A stretch of 64,000 bases of DNA from Nitrospirota bacterium. GTDB taxonomy: Bacteria > Nitrospirota > 9FT-COMBO-42-15 > HDB-SIOI813. The stretch spans positions 128,046 to 192,045 of the forward strand of contig JADZCV010000045.1 in assembly GCA_020851375.1 (NCBI GenBank). Reading direction: 5' to 3'. Shown here piece by piece: positions 19,354-60,087 of this stretch. Every line of letters starts with the position of its first letter. The stretch's first letter is position 1. The position numbers and the translations under genes were made by a program. Below the pieces are notes generated by a model. That model ran no database searches and was not told the origin of the DNA. It saw only the letters and a program-made list of their open reading frames with translations.

Positions 19354-19402
19354 AACTATATGTTCCCTTTCTTGTCTTATCTCTCATAACCAGTCAACGA
19401 AA

Positions 19403-19457
19403 GTTGACGCTCAAAATCGTCCGGTTGCAATGTGTACCCCCGTTTTTCAGCGTCAAC
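19403..19457. repeat. Core-less mini copy of repeat family 1 (GTTGACGCTCAAAA ... TTTTCAGCGTCAAC) at the fliE/fliF junction
   Basis: Its terminal inverted repeats match those of the 120-bp elements at 27367, 54354 and 54678. An adjacent GTCAAC-gaaa-GTTGAC palindrome lies at 19393-19408. Confidence 0.4.
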
Positions 19458-19762
19458 TATACCTGGGTGCGCATTATTTCTTCATACGCACTTATTAACT
19501 TGTTCCTAACCTGCATCATCATCTGCAAAGACAGGTTCGCCTTTTCCACGGCAATCATCACCTGATGAATGTTCTGGTCTTTACCTGACAATAAATCCTG
19601 CACTGCCTGATCAGCCCCATTCTGCACTGTATTGACCTTTTCGACTGACCCCCTGAGCATCTCCGCAAATGAATTTACGGAGTCATCAATTTTTGCTGCG
19701 GACTTGTTGTCAGCTACGGGAAATACATTGGCCCCAATGCCGTTTATCTCCATTTTATTCAT
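19457..19762 (-). CDS. fliE: Flagellar hook-basal body protein FliE
   Basis: 101 aa in the conserved position after flgC. Confidence 0.8.
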   Translation of the reverse strand: MNKMEINGIGANVFPVADNKSAAKIDDSVNSFAEMLRGSVEKVNTVQNGADQAVQDLLSGKDQNIHQVMIAVEKANLSLQMMMQVRNKLISAYEEIMRTQV

Positions 19763-27090: not shown

Positions 27091-27363
27091 ATGACAAAAG
27101 CAGAACTGACAGACAAGATAGCAATTTCAGCAGGTATCAGCAGGACAGCAGCATCAAACGCGCTGAACTCCATGCTTGAAAATATAACCAGGGCATTGCA
27201 GAAGGGACAAAAGGTAACTCTGCTCGGGTTCGGAACATTCTCAGTACAGCACAGGAAGGCCCGCTCCGGCAGGAATCCAAAGACTGGTGAAGAGATAAAG
27301 ATACCGGCAGGTAAATTGCCTAAGTTTACAGCCGGGACAGCCCTCAAGAATTCCCTCAAATAG
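27091..27363 (+). CDS. hup: Nucleoid protein HU/IHF family
   Basis: 90 aa with the classic HU signature GFGTF...RNPKTGEEIKIPA. Confidence 0.9.
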   Translation: MTKAELTDKIAISAGISRTAASNALNSMLENITRALQKGQKVTLLGFGTFSVQHRKARSGRNPKTGEEIKIPAGKLPKFTAGTALKNSLK

Positions 27364-27366
27364 AGA

Positions 27367-27525
27367 ACGCTGAAAAGCACCCCACTGCGGCGTCAGGAAA
27401 AAAGATTTGAACTTCAACGTACAACACAGTACGCCTCAGCTCAAATCTTATTTCCTTCCTTGCATTTGAGTACTTTTGAGCGTTCTCCCGTTGTGACGCT
27501 GAAAAGCACCCAACTGCGGCGCCGG
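27367..27525. repeat. Repeat family 1, full copy (27367-27483) plus a partial copy (27495-27525)
   Basis: ACGCTGAAAAG...CTTTTGAGCGT terminal inverted repeat, the invariant core CTTCAACGTACAACACAGTACGCCTCAG, and a copy-specific complementary inner stem. Confidence 0.6.
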
Positions 27526-27526
27526 T

Positions 27527-27715
27527 TCATGGTTCCAGGTCTAAGACAGTGTTGCAATTCATGCAGAGATATCCCTCTCCTTCAACCATACGGCATGTCT
27601 CTGAGATATACCTGATCTCATATACCATCCCGCATTTACCGCAGGTAATCTGATGCTTTAAATTAGAACCAGGGTTTCCTGTTTCCGTACCCCCTGTTTT
27701 ATCATTATCTGACAC
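27527..27715 (-). CDS. Small zinc-ribbon protein (CxxC...CxxC), GTG start
   Basis: SD GGAGG lies 5 nt before the GTG; two Cys pairs (CGKCG...CMNCN). Uncertain, because it sits between two repeat blocks. Confidence 0.4.
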   Translation of the reverse strand: MSDNDKTGGTETGNPGSNLKHQITCGKCGMVYEIRYISETCRMVEGEGYLCMNCNTVLDLEP

Positions 27716-27740
27716 GTCAACCTCCGTTTCATCTGAAATT

Positions 27741-27965
27741 CCCCGTTATTTACCACAAAGACACAAAGGACACAAAGAATTATATTTCAGATACATCATC
27801 CCAAAATGCTCCTATGTACCTGTCATTCCCACGGAACCTGTCCCCGCATGATTTAAGCGGGGAGTGGGAATCCAGAATCAAGCACTAGTTCTGGATTCCC
27901 GCTTGCGCGGGAATGACATTTTCATCGACCCTTGTGAGCCCAGGCTCATGACGGTTCACTCGATA
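27741..27965. repeat. Repeat family 2, composite hairpin array (modules D-A-B-C)
   Basis: Module D is the CACAAAG-rich segment. Module A is ATTCCCAC...GTGGGAAT with a nested TCCCCGC/GCGGGGA stem. Module B is ATTCCCGCTTGCGCGGGAAT. Module C is TGAGCCC...GGGCTCA. The array recurs at 32837-33297 and 43305-43503. Confidence 0.6.
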
Positions 27966-31998: not shown

Positions 31999-32215
31999 GC
32001 TTTGTCATTCCTGCGAAAGCAGGAATCCAGATATTGTTACTCACAAATACTTTTATACAAGTCATTCCATTGTGGGCTCTCTTTTTCAATTAATTTTAGT
32101 TTCCATATTCTTTTCCATTTCTTTATTTGTTTGCTACAAAGAATATAAACATAATAATTCTTCATTCCTTACCTCTGGATTCCCGCTTACGCGGGAATGA
32201 CAAATAATAATTCCA
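31995..32215. repeat. Two family-2 type-B hairpins in the lexA-dinB spacer (ATTCCTGCGAAAGCAGGAAT at 32010-32029; ATTCCCGCTTACGCGGGAAT at 32178-32197) flanking AT-rich DNA
   Basis: ATTCCC-N8-GGGAAT architecture. The first copy carries a compensatory C-to-T / G-to-A pair that preserves the stem. Confidence 0.5.
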
Positions 32216-32236
32216 TACAACTACACATATTATCAA

Positions 32237-32836
32237 TTATATATACTTCCTCACGACTGCCGTTACCACACCGGCAATCTTCAACTCACTCTTGGGTCTT
32301 ATAGCTTTATACTTCGGATTTGCAGGCAACAGAGAAACCGCATCCCCGCGCTTTCTCAGATACTTCATGGTCCACTCCCCGTCTACCTCAGCAATCACAA
32401 TATCACCGCTCTTTGGGGTCTGAGACCTGTCTACTATAACCATGTCACCAGGGAGTATGCCGGCCTCAACCATGGAATCACCGGACACCTTTAGCAAAAA
32501 TGTAGCCTCCCTGTTCTCTACAAGCAGGTCATCAAAAGAGAGCGTATCCGCCAGCTCTTCCTCGGCAGCGCTCGGAAAGCCGGCCTCTACAGTGCCAAGG
32601 ACCCTCGTGCCTGATACCAATGACCTCGGTATAAGCCTCCCTGTATGGTCCCTCTCTACCACCCCCATCTCTTCAAGCCTGTTTACAAACTTGAACACGG
32701 CATTCTTCGACCTCATACCGAGCATTTTCCCTATCTCAGAAAAACTCGGCATACGCCCCCGCTGCTTATAAAACCGGGCTATGGCATGAAACCGCGATTT
32801 TAATTTAGCCTCTCTGCTATGTTCCAGCTTCTTCAC
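32237..32836 (-). CDS. lexA: SOS repressor LexA (GTG start)
   Basis: N-terminal winged HTH; C-terminal S24 peptidase with the catalytic Ser (GDSM) and Lys (KYL). SD AGGAG 9 nt before the GTG. Confidence 0.85.
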   Translation of the reverse strand: MKKLEHSREAKLKSRFHAIARFYKQRGRMPSFSEIGKMLGMRSKNAVFKFVNRLEEMGVVERDHTGRLIPRSLVSGTRVLGTVEAGFPSAAEEELADTLSFDDLLVENREATFLLKVSGDSMVEAGILPGDMVIVDRSQTPKSGDIVIAEVDGEWTMKYLRKRGDAVSLLPANPKYKAIRPKSELKIAGVVTAVVRKYI

Positions 32837-33297
32837 TCGAAAATACTCCTAAGTACCCGTCATTCCCACGTAACCTGTCCCCGCAGGATTTAAGCACCCG
32901 TCATTCCCACGGAAGTGGGAATCCAGAATCAGGCCCACGGTCTGGATTCCCGCTTACGCGGGAATGACGTTTTCATGAACCCTGGTGAGCCCTGAGCTGT
33001 GAGCTTGTCGAACAGTCGAAGGGCTCATGACAGTTCACCTTAAAATCCCAGTTATTTACCACAAAGACACAAAGGACACAAAGAATTATATTCCAGATAC
33101 ATCATCCAAAAATGCTCCTATTCACCCGTCATTCCCACGTAACCTGTCCCCGCAGGATTTAAGCGGGGAGTGGGAATCCAGTATCAGGCCCACGGTCTGG
33201 ATTCCCGCTTACGCGGGAATGACGTTTTCATGAACCCTGGTGAGCCCTGAGCTGTGAGCTTGTCGAACAGTCGAAGGGCTCATGACGGTTCACCTAA
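32837..33297. repeat. Repeat family 2, tandem composite array (A-A-B-C-D-A-B-C)
   Basis: About 460 bp of nested hairpins. The sequence is near-identical to the copies at 27741-27965 and 43305-43503, including the CACAAAGACACAAAGGACACAAAGAA module. Confidence 0.65.
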
Positions 33298-33418
33298 AAA
33301 TACCACCCTCACCCGTACCCTCTCCCTGCCATCTTTATAATAGGTGAACATTCGTTTACTGTCAAGGAGAAAACTTCATTTATTGCAATAACCCGCTTTA
33401 TTAAAGTAATATGTCATC

Positions 33419-42443: not shown

Positions 42444-43297
42444 AAATTGTCAATTACTGCGGAGAGCAGTCTTGATGCATCTTTACTGCGCATCACTGCC
42501 ATATTAACTACATCTTCATGCCTCAGGGGAGATGCACTGATGCCGGCAGCATTATTGGCTATCATTGATATGACAAGGACCTTAATGCCAAGATACCGGG
42601 ACATTATAACCTCAGGCACTGTAGACATGCAAACTGCATCTGCACCGAGTGTGCGGAGCATCCTGATCTCTGCCGGCGTCTCGTAGGAGGGCCCTGTGAC
42701 CGCGGCAAGGGTGCCGGTGTGCAGGGTTATCCCAATATTTCCGGCAGCGGATAAGACCAACTCTGCCAGCTGCCGGTCGTAAGCCTCTGTCATATCTGTG
42801 AAACGTGTCCTGTCAGCGGCATGAGGGTTCGTCTGCAGCATTATGCTGCCCGCTGTCCTTTCTTCAAAGGGCGAAGGGGCTCTGAGTGGATTTGATCCCA
42901 TCATGTTAATATGATCTGTAACGAGCATAAAATCGCCTGGATTGAAACCGGGTCTTATGCCTCCTGCAGAATTTGTCATGATAACCTGCCTGACACCCAG
43001 CGATGAGAGCACTCTGACAGGGAAGGTGACCTCATCCATGCTGTATCCCTCATAATTGTGCACCCTTCCCTGAAGAAGTATGATCTCTTTCCCATTTTTA
43101 GAGCCATGCAGAAGGCTTCCTTTGTGACCGCTGACTGTTGATATTGGAAAATCAGGGATGTCCTGATACTTGATTTCTGACACACCGTCCAGCAGAGCGC
43201 ATGTATCCCAGCCTGAACCTGTTATAATTGCGGTTGAGGCTGAGATATTCAGTAACGCCGACTTAATGTATTTTACAGCATCATCAACTGGTCTCAT
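42434..43297 (-). CDS. Purine nucleoside phosphorylase (PNP/MTAP family, trimeric type)
   Basis: Family motifs: the GSGWD phosphate loop, SGHKGSLLHG, MTNSAGG and a VCMSTVPE-like region. The start was trimmed to MRPVDD because the upstream 33 codons are repeat-derived. Confidence 0.8.
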   Translation of the reverse strand: MRPVDDAVKYIKSALLNISASTAIITGSGWDTCALLDGVSEIKYQDIPDFPISTVSGHKGSLLHGSKNGKEIILLQGRVHNYEGYSMDEVTFPVRVLSSLGVRQVIMTNSAGGIRPGFNPGDFMLVTDHINMMGSNPLRAPSPFEERTAGSIMLQTNPHAADRTRFTDMTEAYDRQLAELVLSAAGNIGITLHTGTLAAVTGPSYETPAEIRMLRTLGADAVCMSTVPEVIMSRYLGIKVLVISMIANNAAGISASPLRHEDVVNMAVMRSKDASRLLSAVIDNLPG

Positions 43298-43304
43298 TCT
43301 TGAA

Positions 43305-43503
43305 ACCTGTTCACTCGAAAATACTCCTGAGTACCCGTCATTCCCACGGAACCTGTCCCCGCAGGATTTAAGCGGGGAGTGGGAATCCAGAACCAAGCTA
43401 CTGGTCTGGCTTCCGGCTTACGCGGGAATGACATTTTTCATGCCCCTGTGAGCCCCGAACTTTCAGCGTGCCGGACACCCGAAGGACTCATGACGGTTCA
43501 TCC
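43305..43503. repeat. Repeat family 2 copy (modules A-B-C)
   Basis: It begins with the same TTCACTCGAAAATACTCCTGAGTACCCGTCATTCCCACGG sequence that forms the lexA translation-initiation region. Confidence 0.6.
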
Positions 43504-43613
43504 GACAATGTCTGTTAATTATGCTGCCAGGATCATCTGCAAACAGCCCCTTTGTTCTGTCTGTCACAGCTCAGGGAGTATTTAGCGAATCAAGCCGGCT
43601 GCACAGGCCGTCG

Positions 43614-54177: not shown

Positions 54178-54270
54178 GCGGAACTTGTTTACGCTGAAAA
54201 ACGCCGCAGACGGGCATTTTTGTGTGTAGCTGTTGCAACTTCTGCTGAGCTACAGATGCTCACCTTATTA

Positions 54271-54348
54271 TGGCGGGGCCGACGAGACTTGAACTCGCGA
54301 CCTCCTGCGTGACAGGCAGGCGTTCTAACCGAACTGAACTACGACCCC
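54271..54348 (-). tRNA. tRNA-Asp (anticodon GTC)
   Basis: Cloverleaf with anticodon loop CTGTCAC; CCA encoded. Confidence 0.85.
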
Positions 54349-54353
54349 GCGGG

Positions 54354-54478
54354 TTGACGCTGAAAAGTGCCCATCTGCGGCGTCAGGGCATGGGAATTGA
54401 GCTTCAACGTACAACACAGTACGCCTCAGCTCAATTCCCATGCCCTTCCTTGCACCTGGACACTTTTGAGCGTCAACC
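54354..54478. repeat. Repeat family 1, full copy, ending 5 nt before the tRNA-Asp 5' end
   Basis: GTTGACGCTGAAAAG...CTTTTGAGCGTCAAC ends, the invariant core, and inner stem GGGCATGGGAATTGAG/CTCAATTCCCATGCCC. Confidence 0.6.
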
Positions 54479-54597
54479 TTGTTGTTTATGCTGAATTCTG
54501 CAAAATTACTTTATACGGCGTTGGACTCCTCAGGAAATCCTCAACGTACTATTTAGTACGCCTCCGGTTTCCTTGTCATCCACTCCTCTATAAGCAA

Positions 54598-54673
54598 TGG
54601 TAGGCGGAACAGGTATCGAACCTGTGACCTCGGCCTTGTAAGGGCCGCGCTCTACCAATTGAGCTATCCGCCC
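54598..54673 (-). tRNA. tRNA-Val (anticodon TAC)
   Basis: Cloverleaf with anticodon loop CTTACAA; CCA encoded. Confidence 0.85.
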
Positions 54674-54677
54674 ACAG

Positions 54678-54797
54678 TTTACGCTGAAAAATGTCCATTT
54701 GTGGCGTCAGGAAGTATCAATTGAGCTTCAACGTACAACACAGTACGCCTCAGCTCAATTGATACTTCCTTCCTTGCAACTGGACATTTTTGAGCGT
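54678..54797. repeat. Repeat family 1, full copy, starting 4 nt before the tRNA-Val 5' end
   Basis: Same ends and core as the other copies; inner stem GGAAGTATCAATTGAG/CTCAATTGATACTTCC. Confidence 0.6.
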
Positions 54798-54887
54798 AGA
54801 CTGAGTTACTTTTGCTACATTGGGTTACATCCTAACAACTTTAAAAAATATTGTCAATACGGAGTGTTCGGCTTATAATATTCCAAT

Positions 54888-55439
54888 ATGAACAGGGTTA
54901 TAATCATTTTGACTTTCTCTGTTATGCTCCTGTCATTTGGCCGGGTAATGGCACAAAAAGGGGGTGAAACTATGAATTTTACTCTAAGCACCTCTGCCTT
55001 CATTGAAGGTGAAACTATTCCGGTTAAATATACATGTGATGGCGCTGATCTGTCCCCTCTCATGAAATGGGAAGGGATACCGGCAGGCACAAAGGGATTT
55101 GCCATTATTATGGATGATCCTGATGCACCTGTAGGGACTTTTACACACTGGGTTATCTATGACATTCCTGCGGATACCCATACGCTGCCGGAAGGCCTCG
55201 CAAAAGACCCCGAACTTTCAAAGGGTATCAAGCAGGGAACAACCAGTTTCAGGCGTACAGGCTATGGAGGTCCGTGTCCTCCGCCAGGCCGCCCGCACAG
55301 ATACTTCTTCACAATCTATGCCCTTGATACCGGGACAACAGGATTAGCGTCCAAAGCATCAAGACAGGATGTTGAAAGCAGGATTAAAGGACACATCACC
55401 GGCAAAGCCACAGTGATGGGTCAATATGGGCGAAAATAG
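54888..55439 (+). CDS. YbhB/YbcL-family PEBP (Raf-kinase-inhibitor-like) periplasmic protein
   Basis: Signal peptide and PEBP motifs (DPDAPVGTFTHWVIYDIP, GYGGPCPP...HRY). Confidence 0.8.
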   Translation: MNRVIIILTFSVMLLSFGRVMAQKGGETMNFTLSTSAFIEGETIPVKYTCDGADLSPLMKWEGIPAGTKGFAIIMDDPDAPVGTFTHWVIYDIPADTHTLPEGLAKDPELSKGIKQGTTSFRRTGYGGPCPPPGRPHRYFFTIYALDTGTTGLASKASRQDVESRIKGHITGKATVMGQYGRK

Positions 55440-59363: not shown

Positions 59364-60087
59364 CTATGTTTTCTCCTTGCCATATTCTGCAAGTTTTGTA
59401 CTTGTTGTATCACTCAAATAATACCCGCCTGTCTTTGGACTCCCTTTAAAAATAACAAGACCGGCTGATTGCATCTTTTGCATATCCCGTCTTATTGTTA
59501 CAGGAGTAACTCCGGTTCTTTCACTTAATTTTTTTGAACGGATTCCCGGATTCTGCTCAAGAATAATTATAATCTTCGACATTCTTTCCTTTACTGTATC
59601 ATTTACTGTATCACCTACTGTATCATTTACTATGTCACTTGCTGTGCCGGCTGATACAATAAGCTTTGCAAACATACTTTCATCCAATGGAATTATTATT
59701 TTGAAATAATTGCCTTCAATAAACTGGGGCTTTTTGCCAAGGGTATAAACAGGCAGGTACTTGTTAACGTTCAACACACCTGACCCAAGCTCATCCACCC
59801 GCCCAAGCTGGGTAAAGAATTTGCAAATCAATGGGTTTTTAGAAAAAGGAGTGAAGTTGTCCAGACGAATCGGACCTTCACCATTTTGAAATATTCACCA
59901 GATTGGCTTTCAATATTTCCACCTTTGAAGCATCCACACCTTTAACAGCGCCGGTATCAGCAACACCCAATAATATATCGCCCCCATCCCTGTTCAGCAT
60001 GGCACAGATGGTTTCAAAAAGGCTCTCAGGCAGTTCCGCCCTGGCCTCTTTGACCTCCAGACGGATGTTTTCACGCTGCTTGAGCAA
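59364..60087 (-). pseudogene. Disrupted AlbA_2/HATPase_c_4/HTH-type regulator (two ORF fragments of 69 and 155 aa)
   Basis: An N-terminal AlbA_2-like fragment (ELPESLFETICAMLNRDGGDILLGV) and a C-terminal fragment with a winged HTH, separated by 46 bp. The middle of the protein is missing. An internal 12-bp tandem repeat lies at 59590-59645. Confidence 0.45.

Follow-up and report, generated by a model that had tools for sequence, protein, structure and literature searches.

The window, by which we mean the whole 64-kb stretch of DNA that was analyzed, contains three full copies of a palindromic element of ~120 bp. One of these directly follows the gene for HU, and the other two are located in a tRNA-Val/tRNA-Asp operon. 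Together with a decayed full copy, a mini copy that lacks the core, and three fragments, they make a total of eight (Table 1). An earlier note on this DNA had described the three full copies as a hairpin-forming repeat, and searches with the core and the arms, combined with folding, showed this description to be accurate. Specifically, the 28-nt core CTTCAACGTACAACACAGTACGCCTCAG is invariant and has exactly three matches (27412, 54402 and 54726), all on the plus strand, where the chance expectation for the window is 0. The outer arms ACGCTGAAAA(G/A) and CTTTTGAGCGT are found at 27367/27473, 54357/54463 and 54681/54787. The copy positions given in the earlier note hold as well, except that its starts at 54354 and 54678 are 3 nt off for the conserved arm. 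The hairpin itself reaches out to both of these points.

With respect to their immediate surroundings, the HU copy begins at the final base of the HU stop codon (TAG at 27361–27363), and one end of the mini copy overlaps the TAG stop of fliE (CTA at 19457–19459 on the plus strand). In both tRNA-linked copies the base of the hairpin is 1–3 nt, and the conserved arms are 7–8 nt, from the mature tRNA 5′ end. The stem of the tRNA-Asp copy is further prolonged by GGTTG/CAACC.

The minor items proposed previously, namely the decayed copy, the solo arm, the rearranged fragment and the core-less mini copy, are likewise real, and the neighboring genes place the mini copy between fliE and fliF as claimed. 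The decayed copy consists of an inner module (54517–54587) and a 3′-arm remnant (54484–54506), and its ortholog is the decayed copy in a related genome (L126). A short segment absent from the earlier note (54801–54816) is, judging from its resemblance to an arm of the HU copy, probably a further arm remnant. Nearby, a PEBP-family protein is encoded at 54888–55439, and a look-up with this protein yielded only short contigs, which end at the repeat.

Table 1. Element copies, tRNA genes and promoter in the 64-kb window
Feature	Position	Strand	Details
Core-less mini copy, outer arms only	19403–19457	+	Covariance-model match 19394–19465, 21.4 bits
Full HU copy	27363–27487	−	Arms 27367–27483; core 27412–27439
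Solo arm ACGCTGAAAAGCACCCAACTGCGGCGCCGG	27496–27525	+	Ortholog is the solo arm right after the HU stop in L130
Fragment 3′ of tRNA-Asp	54187–54222	−	Inverted arm piece joined to terminal sequence TTTTTCAGCGTAAAC
tRNA-Asp (gtc)	54271–54348	−	
Full copy directly 5′ of tRNA-Asp	54352–54478	−	Arms 54357–54473; apical core 54402–54429
Decayed full copy between tRNA-Val and young copy	54484–54597	−	Covariance model and comparison with L126
tRNA-Val (tac)	54598–54673	−	
Full copy in tRNA-Val 5′ leader, 3′ of promoter	54675–54803	−	Arms 54681–54797; core 54726–54753
Putative short 5′-arm remnant AGCAAAAGTAACTCAG, just upstream of tRNA-Val copy	54801–54816	−	Likeness to HU-copy arm ACGCTCAAAAGTACTCA
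Sigma-70-type promoter of tRNA-Val/Asp operon, TTGACA-17-TAGGAT	54829–54857	−	Outside element

A strand-specific hairpin maintained by compensatory change

Each full copy in the window folds into one long hairpin, with z scores of −8 to −14 relative to dinucleotide shuffles. The two strands of the element are not equivalent in this respect. We call F the strand that reads GAGGCGTAC-N6-GTACGTTGA, and P its complement, which reads TCAACGTAC-N6-GTACGCCTC; in the window these are the minus and the plus strand, respectively. The F strand folds better in two of the three full copies, and the third is a tie. At its apex, GA|GGCGUAC-N6-GUACGUU|GA, the F strand forms a tandem G·A, two G·U pairs and five Watson–Crick pairs, whereas the same positions read on P are mismatches. 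The variable stems had been reported as perfectly complementary within each copy; this is correct for the two tRNA-linked copies, but the HU copy has a single U·U and a single G·U. With a covariance model derived from F, the full window copies reach 103–115 bits on the minus strand (tRNA-Asp copy, 115.5; HU copy, 107.5; tRNA-Val copy, 103) and 24–32 bits on the plus strand, the upper value being that of the tRNA-Asp copy. The model also recovers the inner module of the decayed copy (40.5 bits) as well as the mini copy, and it gives fragment 54179–54240 alone a score of 12 bits, which is not significant.

The family is not confined to the window genome and spans many phyla. An exact-pattern scan using one genome per species returned at least 120 loci, with the apical motif present in more than 120 species genomes from at least 10 phyla. 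Nitrospira predominates among the matches listed, which further include Syntrophales, Geobacter, Acidobacteriota, Rokubacteria/Methylomirabilota, Planctomycetota, Binatia and Myxococcota, along with alpha- and gammaproteobacterial metagenome-assembled genomes (MAGs), two candidate-phyla-radiation (CPR) lineages and others. Desulfobacterota are among the carrier phyla. The element is 120–140 bp in length. Its outer arms and its apical module are conserved, and two or three short segments of the stem are variable. Read along the F strand, the architecture common to these lineages begins with an outer stem and a conserved C·C mismatch beside an A5/U5 box, followed by another stem, the internal loop (CAAGG opposite AACGNNG), a variable stem and finally the apical module. 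The feet of the element differ between the window's lineage, where they read (T)AG|TTGACGC, and Nitrospira, where they read (C)TA|GCAGG.

As the exact core is imposed by the search pattern, copies lacking it were sought separately with the covariance model, which identified ~25 more in the same loci. The apical stems of these copies show compensatory changes (CGTAG/CTACG, CGTAT/ATACG and TGTAT/ATACA), and the flanking GA-GG...UU-GA is kept. The family also has a modular character, in that some copies combine the family arms with a different centre, others, as in Rokubacteria, combine the family centre with other arms, and small palindromes are nested inside some copies. A large insertion sequence was considered as the cause of the interruptions in some Nitrospira copies and was rejected, the interrupting segment being a nested palindromic module of ~60 nt. 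In terms of sequence assembly and annotation, contigs break at element copies, and at one locus (L052) a long spurious ORF reads through a copy.

Known families gave no counterpart. A search of Rfam 15 with the window and ten loci from different lineages returned nothing at or above the gathering threshold other than tRNAs, and at E-value thresholds the same sequences gave only tRNAs and meaningless miRNA-like hairpin matches. There was no match among 2.9 million viral contigs or in a plasmid collection. In the open-access literature, we found no description of the family or of its core sequence and nothing specific in work on Nitrospira MITEs or REPs, and the motif is absent from the supplements on Geobacter 'multicopy nucleotide sequences'.

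Evidence that the hairpin is maintained by compensatory change comes from two sets of copies. In a MAFFT alignment of 30 diverse copies, 20 of the 31 pairs have changes on both sides. Paired cells make up 90.7% of the total compared with 73.7% in shuffles, with 0 of 500 shuffles reaching the observed value, and sliding the partner column lowers the proportion to 33–40%. The second set derives from a metagenome scan with an arm typical of the window's lineage, which produced 73 loci; together with the earlier loci of the same lineage, these supplied 48 distinct copies with 15+15-nt variable arms, including the three from the window. Here the 15-bp variable stem is 95.7% Watson–Crick paired, versus 70.4% (maximum 74%) when arms are exchanged between copies, and it is perfectly paired in 22 of the 48. 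The first 10 variable nucleotides are only 64% identical between copies, as compared to 93% for the adjoining conserved arm. The earlier note had interpreted the covariation as a hairpin under selection, a reading that it would have given up had compensatory changes been no more frequent than expected by chance. The observed changes lie far above the shuffle, slid-column and arm-swap controls, with 152 cells of the 30-copy alignment changed on both sides versus 58.6 in shuffles.

The same data sets reveal that the constraint acts on one strand. The mean folding energy is −66.9 kcal/mol for F versus −56.5 kcal/mol for P, and F is the more stable of the two in 111 of 115 copies. Outside the fixed core, the 30-copy alignment contains 61 G·U pairs on F versus 21 A·C cells, which correspond to G·U on P, and the variable stem of the 48 copies from the window's lineage has 22 G·U pairs on F versus 2 on P. 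With regard to replication, the F strand shows no bias, GC skew being positive at 48 loci and negative at 52. In the window itself most copies lie on the G-rich strand, a pattern that fails to generalize. Orientation relative to flanking genes is mixed, with no convincing bias. Taken together, these observations identify F as the better-folding strand regardless of the local direction of transcription, and establish a structural constraint on one strand that is independent of both local transcription and replication direction.

Placement at gene boundaries and occupancy of orthologous sites

One end of the element is positioned with considerable precision relative to gene boundaries. In 58 of 114 copies of the cross-phylum set, an ORF of at least 100 codons on the P strand ends with its stop codon at the element edge. 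Relative to the first core base, the upstream distance of the stop is 52 nt in 24 copies and 53 nt in another 9, and all three stop codons are represented. The C-termini at the edge belong to different genes and are native-looking, as seen for GroES (twice), PurH (in two phyla), GreA, YbaB, MurA and HU. A native stop codon likewise marks the start of the element at 32 of the 61 sites in the window's lineage; at 26 of these 61, a T precedes the inverted repeat's terminal AG, resulting in TAG.

Sites in the window's lineage also include those at six tRNA genes, tRNA-Asp, Val, Met, Phe, Gln and Gly(tcc). In each case the same physical end comes within 0–5 nt of the mature tRNA 5′ end, with F as the tRNA strand. 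The other end of the element is flush with nothing at the sites of this lineage. In the window, the one-end rule is obeyed by all four informative copies, which can be written as HU-TAG|, fliE-TAG|, |tRNA-Val and |tRNA-Asp. By a rough estimate, 6 tRNA sites among ~45 distinct sites represent ~8 times the share of tRNA genes. Outside the window's lineage the enrichment is not clear; in the cross-phylum set, tRNA adjacency is seen at only ~5 of 120 loci among the matches listed. In three Nitrospira species and one gammaproteobacterial MAG, an element is located at the 5′ side of tRNA-Leu(gag) and follows the same rule of end and strand. The association with tRNA 5′ ends suggested by the earlier note is genuine in that copies lie directly 5′ of six different tRNA genes in one orientation in the window's lineage, but it is not the main context of the family: about half of the copies directly follow a protein gene, right at its stop codon. 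A comparable preference has been described for E. coli REPs, 260 of 496 of which lie within 15 nt of a stop codon according to the figures that PMC12306157 quotes from Liang et al. 2015. The one-ended precision and the tRNA rule were not found described in the open-access literature.

Orthologous sites in close relatives are occupied in some genomes and empty in others. Both the window and L125 carry an element at the tRNA-Val site, which is empty in L126/L127, whose TolQ is 87% identical to that of the window. At the empty site, 16 nt separate the promoter TTGACA-17-TAGGAT from tRNA-Val. The window has this promoter too, and between it and tRNA-Val come 12 similar nt and then ~143 nt of element. 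The presence of the same promoter at the empty L126 site indicates that the window element is an insertion in the transcribed pre-tRNA leader, 3′ of the promoter. Between tRNA-Val and tRNA-Asp, a full and then a decayed copy are found in L126, a decayed and then a full copy in the window, and a full copy only in L125. In L165, the two tRNA genes are 93 nt apart with no element.

The HU site displays a similar range of states. It is empty in L128/L129 and L132/L133, where the sequence reads AAATAG|TTATTTTATTG, and it is filled in the window, L134 and L136 by a full copy directly after the same native TAG. In L130 only a solo arm is present, which is the ortholog of the window's partial copy, and in L187 the element is reversed and exactly fills the gap between two convergent stop codons. 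As these comparisons illustrate, copies stack beside one another and decay in place.

No target-site duplication is visible at the tRNA-Val or HU site in these two empty/filled comparisons. Instead of forming direct repeats, the flanking bases on either side of the element complement each other. Insertion into a pre-existing palindrome was considered and rejected, since the empty tRNA-Val and HU sites lack such a palindrome, and IS630/Tc1-like insertion with TA duplication was rejected as TA or TAG is found at one end only. The presence and absence of the element at orthologous sites place the MITE alternative of the earlier note close to the truth.

Origin of the element and its relation to known repeats

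The element carries no gene, and ORFs across it are not conserved because the stems vary. With respect to a partner gene or vehicle, a Pfam scan of the neighbors at two multi-copy loci (L017 and L117) revealed ordinary genes and no RAYT or integrase, and a tblastn search with an approximate IS200 TnpA query against L001–L134 and the window in 8-kb pieces, a weak test, gave no match. Between them, the two Pfam-scanned loci and the IS200 TnpA search disclosed no transposase, RAYT, integrase or reverse transcriptase near the copies. No related autonomous insertion sequence with the same terminal repeats was seen in ~1.4 Mb of loci.

Our observations are most consistent with a non-autonomous, REP/MITE-like mobile hairpin whose structure is probably selected in a single-stranded intermediate. 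The family as a whole would then be a large set of non-coding palindromic repeats of 120–140 bp, REP/BIME- and MITE-like in character, which we consider reasonably likely to be mobile or recently mobile. In such a model, new copies would arise only from copies whose F-strand hairpin is intact in a single-stranded intermediate (DNA or RNA), and selection of this type would keep young copies perfectly paired while sub-lineages diverge in the variable segments. A similar process, in which copies are purified through hairpin-dependent spread, has been proposed for REPINs. The two tRNA-linked copies of the window would have landed inside the tRNA-Val/Asp transcription unit in the sense (F) orientation, and they would be transcribed from the tRNA promoter as a ~55-bp rod in the pre-tRNA leader and spacer. 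By analogy with Correia/NEMIS elements, whose hairpins are cleaved by RNase III in transcripts (PMC10969869), RNase III would cut the rod and RNase P would finish the tRNA 5′ end. The HU and fliE copies would reside in 3′ UTRs with P as the sense strand and could act like REPs.

Several features fit a mobile hairpin less comfortably. Neither of the empty/filled comparisons reveals a target-site duplication, and the searches described above found no transposition or integration gene near the copies. The absence of a replication-strand bias for F differs from IS200/IS605-type single-strand transposition and argues against a lagging-strand mechanism of that type. Conservation of an 18-nt apical motif across at least 10 phyla is also unusual for selfish repeats, which are normally species-specific (PMC6006769). 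Moreover, three Nitrospira species have retained the copy 5′ of tRNA-Leu(gag), which could mean a host function, and stop codons and mature tRNA 5′ ends are RNA-level landmarks, for which insertion at the DNA level only offers no obvious explanation.

The serious alternative is a structured RNA module that benefits the host, a form of 'RNA punctuation' that would govern processing or stability by being cut by RNase III, blocking exonucleases or binding a protein; we regard this as possible but unlikely. The apical G·A/G·U motif and the internal loop would be read by a conserved factor, the module would have spread through its usefulness, and it would mark the 3′ ends of cistrons and the 5′ sides of tRNAs. 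Consistent with such a role are a strand asymmetry in which G·U and tandem G·A pairs characterize one strand, the retention of GA-GG...UU-GA even where the apical stem changes compensatorily, the conserved internal loop, the recurrence of a copy at tRNA-Leu(gag) in the gammaproteobacterial MAG as well as in Nitrospira, and the invariable use of F as the tRNA strand in the window's lineage. Copies flush with stop codons also recall the translation-regulating REPs of E. coli (PMC12306157). Nonetheless, the strand transcribed after protein genes is P and not the better-folding F, orientation relative to genes is mixed, and the HU site is used in both orientations (L187 versus the window). A host module is further at odds with sites that are empty in close relatives and have no visible replacement, with copies that decay in place, and with the lack of a matching Rfam family.

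A related reading, which we hold to be distinctly improbable, is that the element is an ancient cross-phylum hairpin rather than an ordinary selfish repeat, with its apical motif read by a conserved cellular or element-encoded factor and its placement governed by RNA-level landmarks (the stop codon and the RNase P site). If this were true, the element might insert through an RNA or transcription-coupled route, making it a bacterial SINE-like repeat with master copies on strong tRNA promoters, or it might be a domesticated 'punctuation' signal for cutting polycistronic transcripts.

It is very unlikely that the element is an intrinsic, possibly bidirectional, transcription terminator copied around the genome. 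The very stable hairpin right after genes is what one would expect of a terminator, and some copies lie exactly between convergent genes (in L187, and between HU and a 62-aa ORF in the window), but no U-tract or T-run follows the hairpin on either strand, and other copies lie between a promoter and its tRNA or between co-transcribed tRNAs, where a terminator would be harmful. A terminator scan found none formed by the full element hairpin and one minimal match inside the solo-arm fragment 27496–27525.

The proposal of the earlier note that the element serves tRNA genes as a promoter or as a native leader module is scarcely tenable: two copies do abut tRNA 5′ ends and one contains a weak sigma-70-like match, read by eye, on the plus strand (TTGCAA-17-TAGACT), but the actual promoter is upstream of the element and stands intact 16 nt from tRNA-Val at the empty L126 site, most copies are not near tRNAs, and a promoter scan finds none inside the copies. 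We likewise give almost no credence to an integron attC-like recombination site marking gene cassettes, the R″ box of which has the consensus RYYYAAC; the element is found after stop codons of unrelated small genes, conserves structure while its sequence varies, folds in a strand-specific manner and in some Nitrospira copies begins with GTCTAAC, which fits this consensus, but its orientation relative to genes is inconsistent, its copies are single and scattered among housekeeping genes (groES, purH, HU, ybaB/recR and tRNAs), no integrase was encountered at the two loci scanned, and the window copies either lack these boxes or show them in reversed order, as GTT...AAC.

Small palindromic repeats are usually regarded as species-specific genomic litter. 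By contrast, the family described here keeps an 18-nt apical motif, an internal loop and a strand-specific fold across phyla, and sets one specific end within 0–5 nt of stop codons and tRNA 5′ ends. Should this placement stem from a transposition mechanism, it would represent targeting of a hitherto unknown kind; should it stem from selection, the element would be a signal for RNA processing or stability in wide use among uncultivated environmental bacteria. In practical terms, the family is ready for use as a covariance model in genome annotation, where it would be of value because contigs break at copies and a spurious ORF runs through the copy in L052. It also offers a natural test case for compensatory evolution in mobile hairpins, and it ties the spread of repeats to tRNA leaders in a concrete and testable way.

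Among known systems, the element shares with REPs, BIMEs and REPINs its nature as a high-copy extragenic palindrome that clusters and forms mosaics, its hairpin kept by compensatory change, and a strand-specific single-stranded form that is thought to be the active one. The proportion of copies flush with stop codons (58 of 114) also resembles that of the E. coli REPs near stop codons (260 of 496, as cited in PMC12306157). REPs are, however, 20–40 nt in length, carry a GT[AG]G foot, and are species-specific, with each family tied to its own RAYT gene (PMC6006769). The element is instead a single hairpin of 120–140 bp and not a doublet of two REPs, its arms are not themselves palindromic, it lacks GT[AG]G at the 5′ foot, and its apical motif is common to many phyla; furthermore, no RAYT was found near it (L017 and L117 by Pfam; L001–L134 and the window with the approximate IS200 TnpA query).

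MITEs such as Correia/NEMIS, ERIC and Chunjie are similar in size and in their lack of coding capacity. They also have terminal inverted repeats, represented here by the arms ACGCTGAAAAG and CTTTTGAGCGT, form a long hairpin when transcribed, insert into operons without breaking them and nest in one another, and in the Correia/NEMIS case such hairpins are cut by RNase III (PMC10969869). The element departs from them in having no visible target-site duplication, where Correia duplicates TA, and no parent insertion sequence that we could find, in conserving its centre as well as its ends, and in having only one end set precisely against a gene boundary. The IS200/IS605-derived palindrome-associated elements (PATEs) are comparable in their strand-specific DNA hairpins, absence of target duplication and polar ends. 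PATEs, though, have a separate hairpin at each end, where here the whole element is one hairpin; they use a fixed tetranucleotide target, where T precedes the element at only 26 of 61 sites; and they favor the lagging-strand template, where the element shows no replication-strand bias. Integron attC sites also conserve structure over sequence, fold in a strand-specific manner and lie just after the preceding stop codon, but the element does not have R″ (RYYYAAC) 5′ and R′ (GTTRRRY) 3′ boxes in the right order, forms no arrays, has no integrase (L017 and L117) and occurs in both orientations. The element therefore fails the defining features of REPs (size and GTAG foot), MITEs (target duplication) and attC sites, and, relative to the open-access literature with which it was compared, what is new is the combination of conservation across phyla with one-ended, landmark-precise placement.

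Placement of the element beside genes

The hairpin element, a repeat of some 120-140 bp that is probably mobile or was so recently, directly follows the stop codon of the same gene in more than one MAG. It stands behind purH in a Nitrospiraceae MAG (L013) and a Methylomirabilota MAG (L115), and behind groES in two Desulfobacterota MAGs (L089 and L105). Insertion may have recurred behind these genes, or the copies may have been retained there for a very long time.

With respect to tRNA genes, the orientation rule of the window's lineage, by which the better-folding (F) strand lies on the tRNA strand where an element end adjoins a tRNA 5' end, is broken by a single tRNA-linked copy. This copy, in a Candidatus Uhrbacteria MAG (L066, 7136-7272), takes up exactly the spacer that separates tRNA-Ile from tRNA-Phe, and its F strand is antisense to both.

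Possible extra modules in Nitrospira

Several Nitrospira copies carry, in place of part of one element arm, a module of ~60 nt with the hairpin GGCGCGCC-GAAA-CGCGCC (table). This module looks like a further small palindromic element, nesting at a fixed point of the hairpin element. The copy at L034 carries a different palindrome, of 32 nt, nested in the other arm.

At L052 (1753-4020), element copies lie between small unrelated genes (nitroreductase-like, SDR and RidA-like) and are accompanied by an additional conserved flank of ~30 nt, ATGGCGCTGA...CACAATAAC. The same flank was found again beside element copies at other Nitrospira loci, and may be an extra module of the Nitrospira subfamily.

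Neighbouring features and metagenome assembly

Beside the full copy that follows the HU stop codon in the window lies a 62-aa ORF. It is called as a gene at the locus of a relative (L130), visible conservation of its coding sequence extends to the HU loci of the other relatives, and it had no match in Pfam. The window also holds 3-5 copies of a second repeat family, unrelated to the hairpin element, with palindromic units that include TCTGGATTCCCGCTTGCGCGGGAATGACA and GTCATTCCCACGGAAGTGGGAATCCAGA; no match to this family was obtained in Rfam at the gathering threshold.

Features in the window and nested modules at other loci
Feature	Location	Strand	Remarks
62-aa ORF	window 27527-27715	-	two CxxC pairs; convergent with HU
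Second repeat family	window 27728-27941, 32818-33305, 43243-43509		repeats of ~80-210 nt
Second repeat family, sub-repeats	window 32001-32031, 32174-32204
Sigma-70-like promoter TTGTCA-17-TATAAT	within window 54829-54879	+	towards PEBP-family gene
Sigma-70-like promoter TTGACA-17-TAGGAT	within window 54829-54879	-	towards tRNA-Val
12-nt tandem repeat TACTGTATCATT/ACC	window 59592-59639		family D13; three to four copies
~60-nt nested module, one arm	L107 2680-2740; also L025, L067, L088, L117
~60-nt nested module, other arm	L026, L118, L035

Upstream of tRNA-Val, a single AT-rich stretch is common to two overlapping, divergent sigma-70-like promoters. In public short-read assemblies of the window's organism (L121-L123), contigs end just upstream of the PEBP-family gene, which is the position of the repeat cluster; the elements fragment metagenome assemblies.
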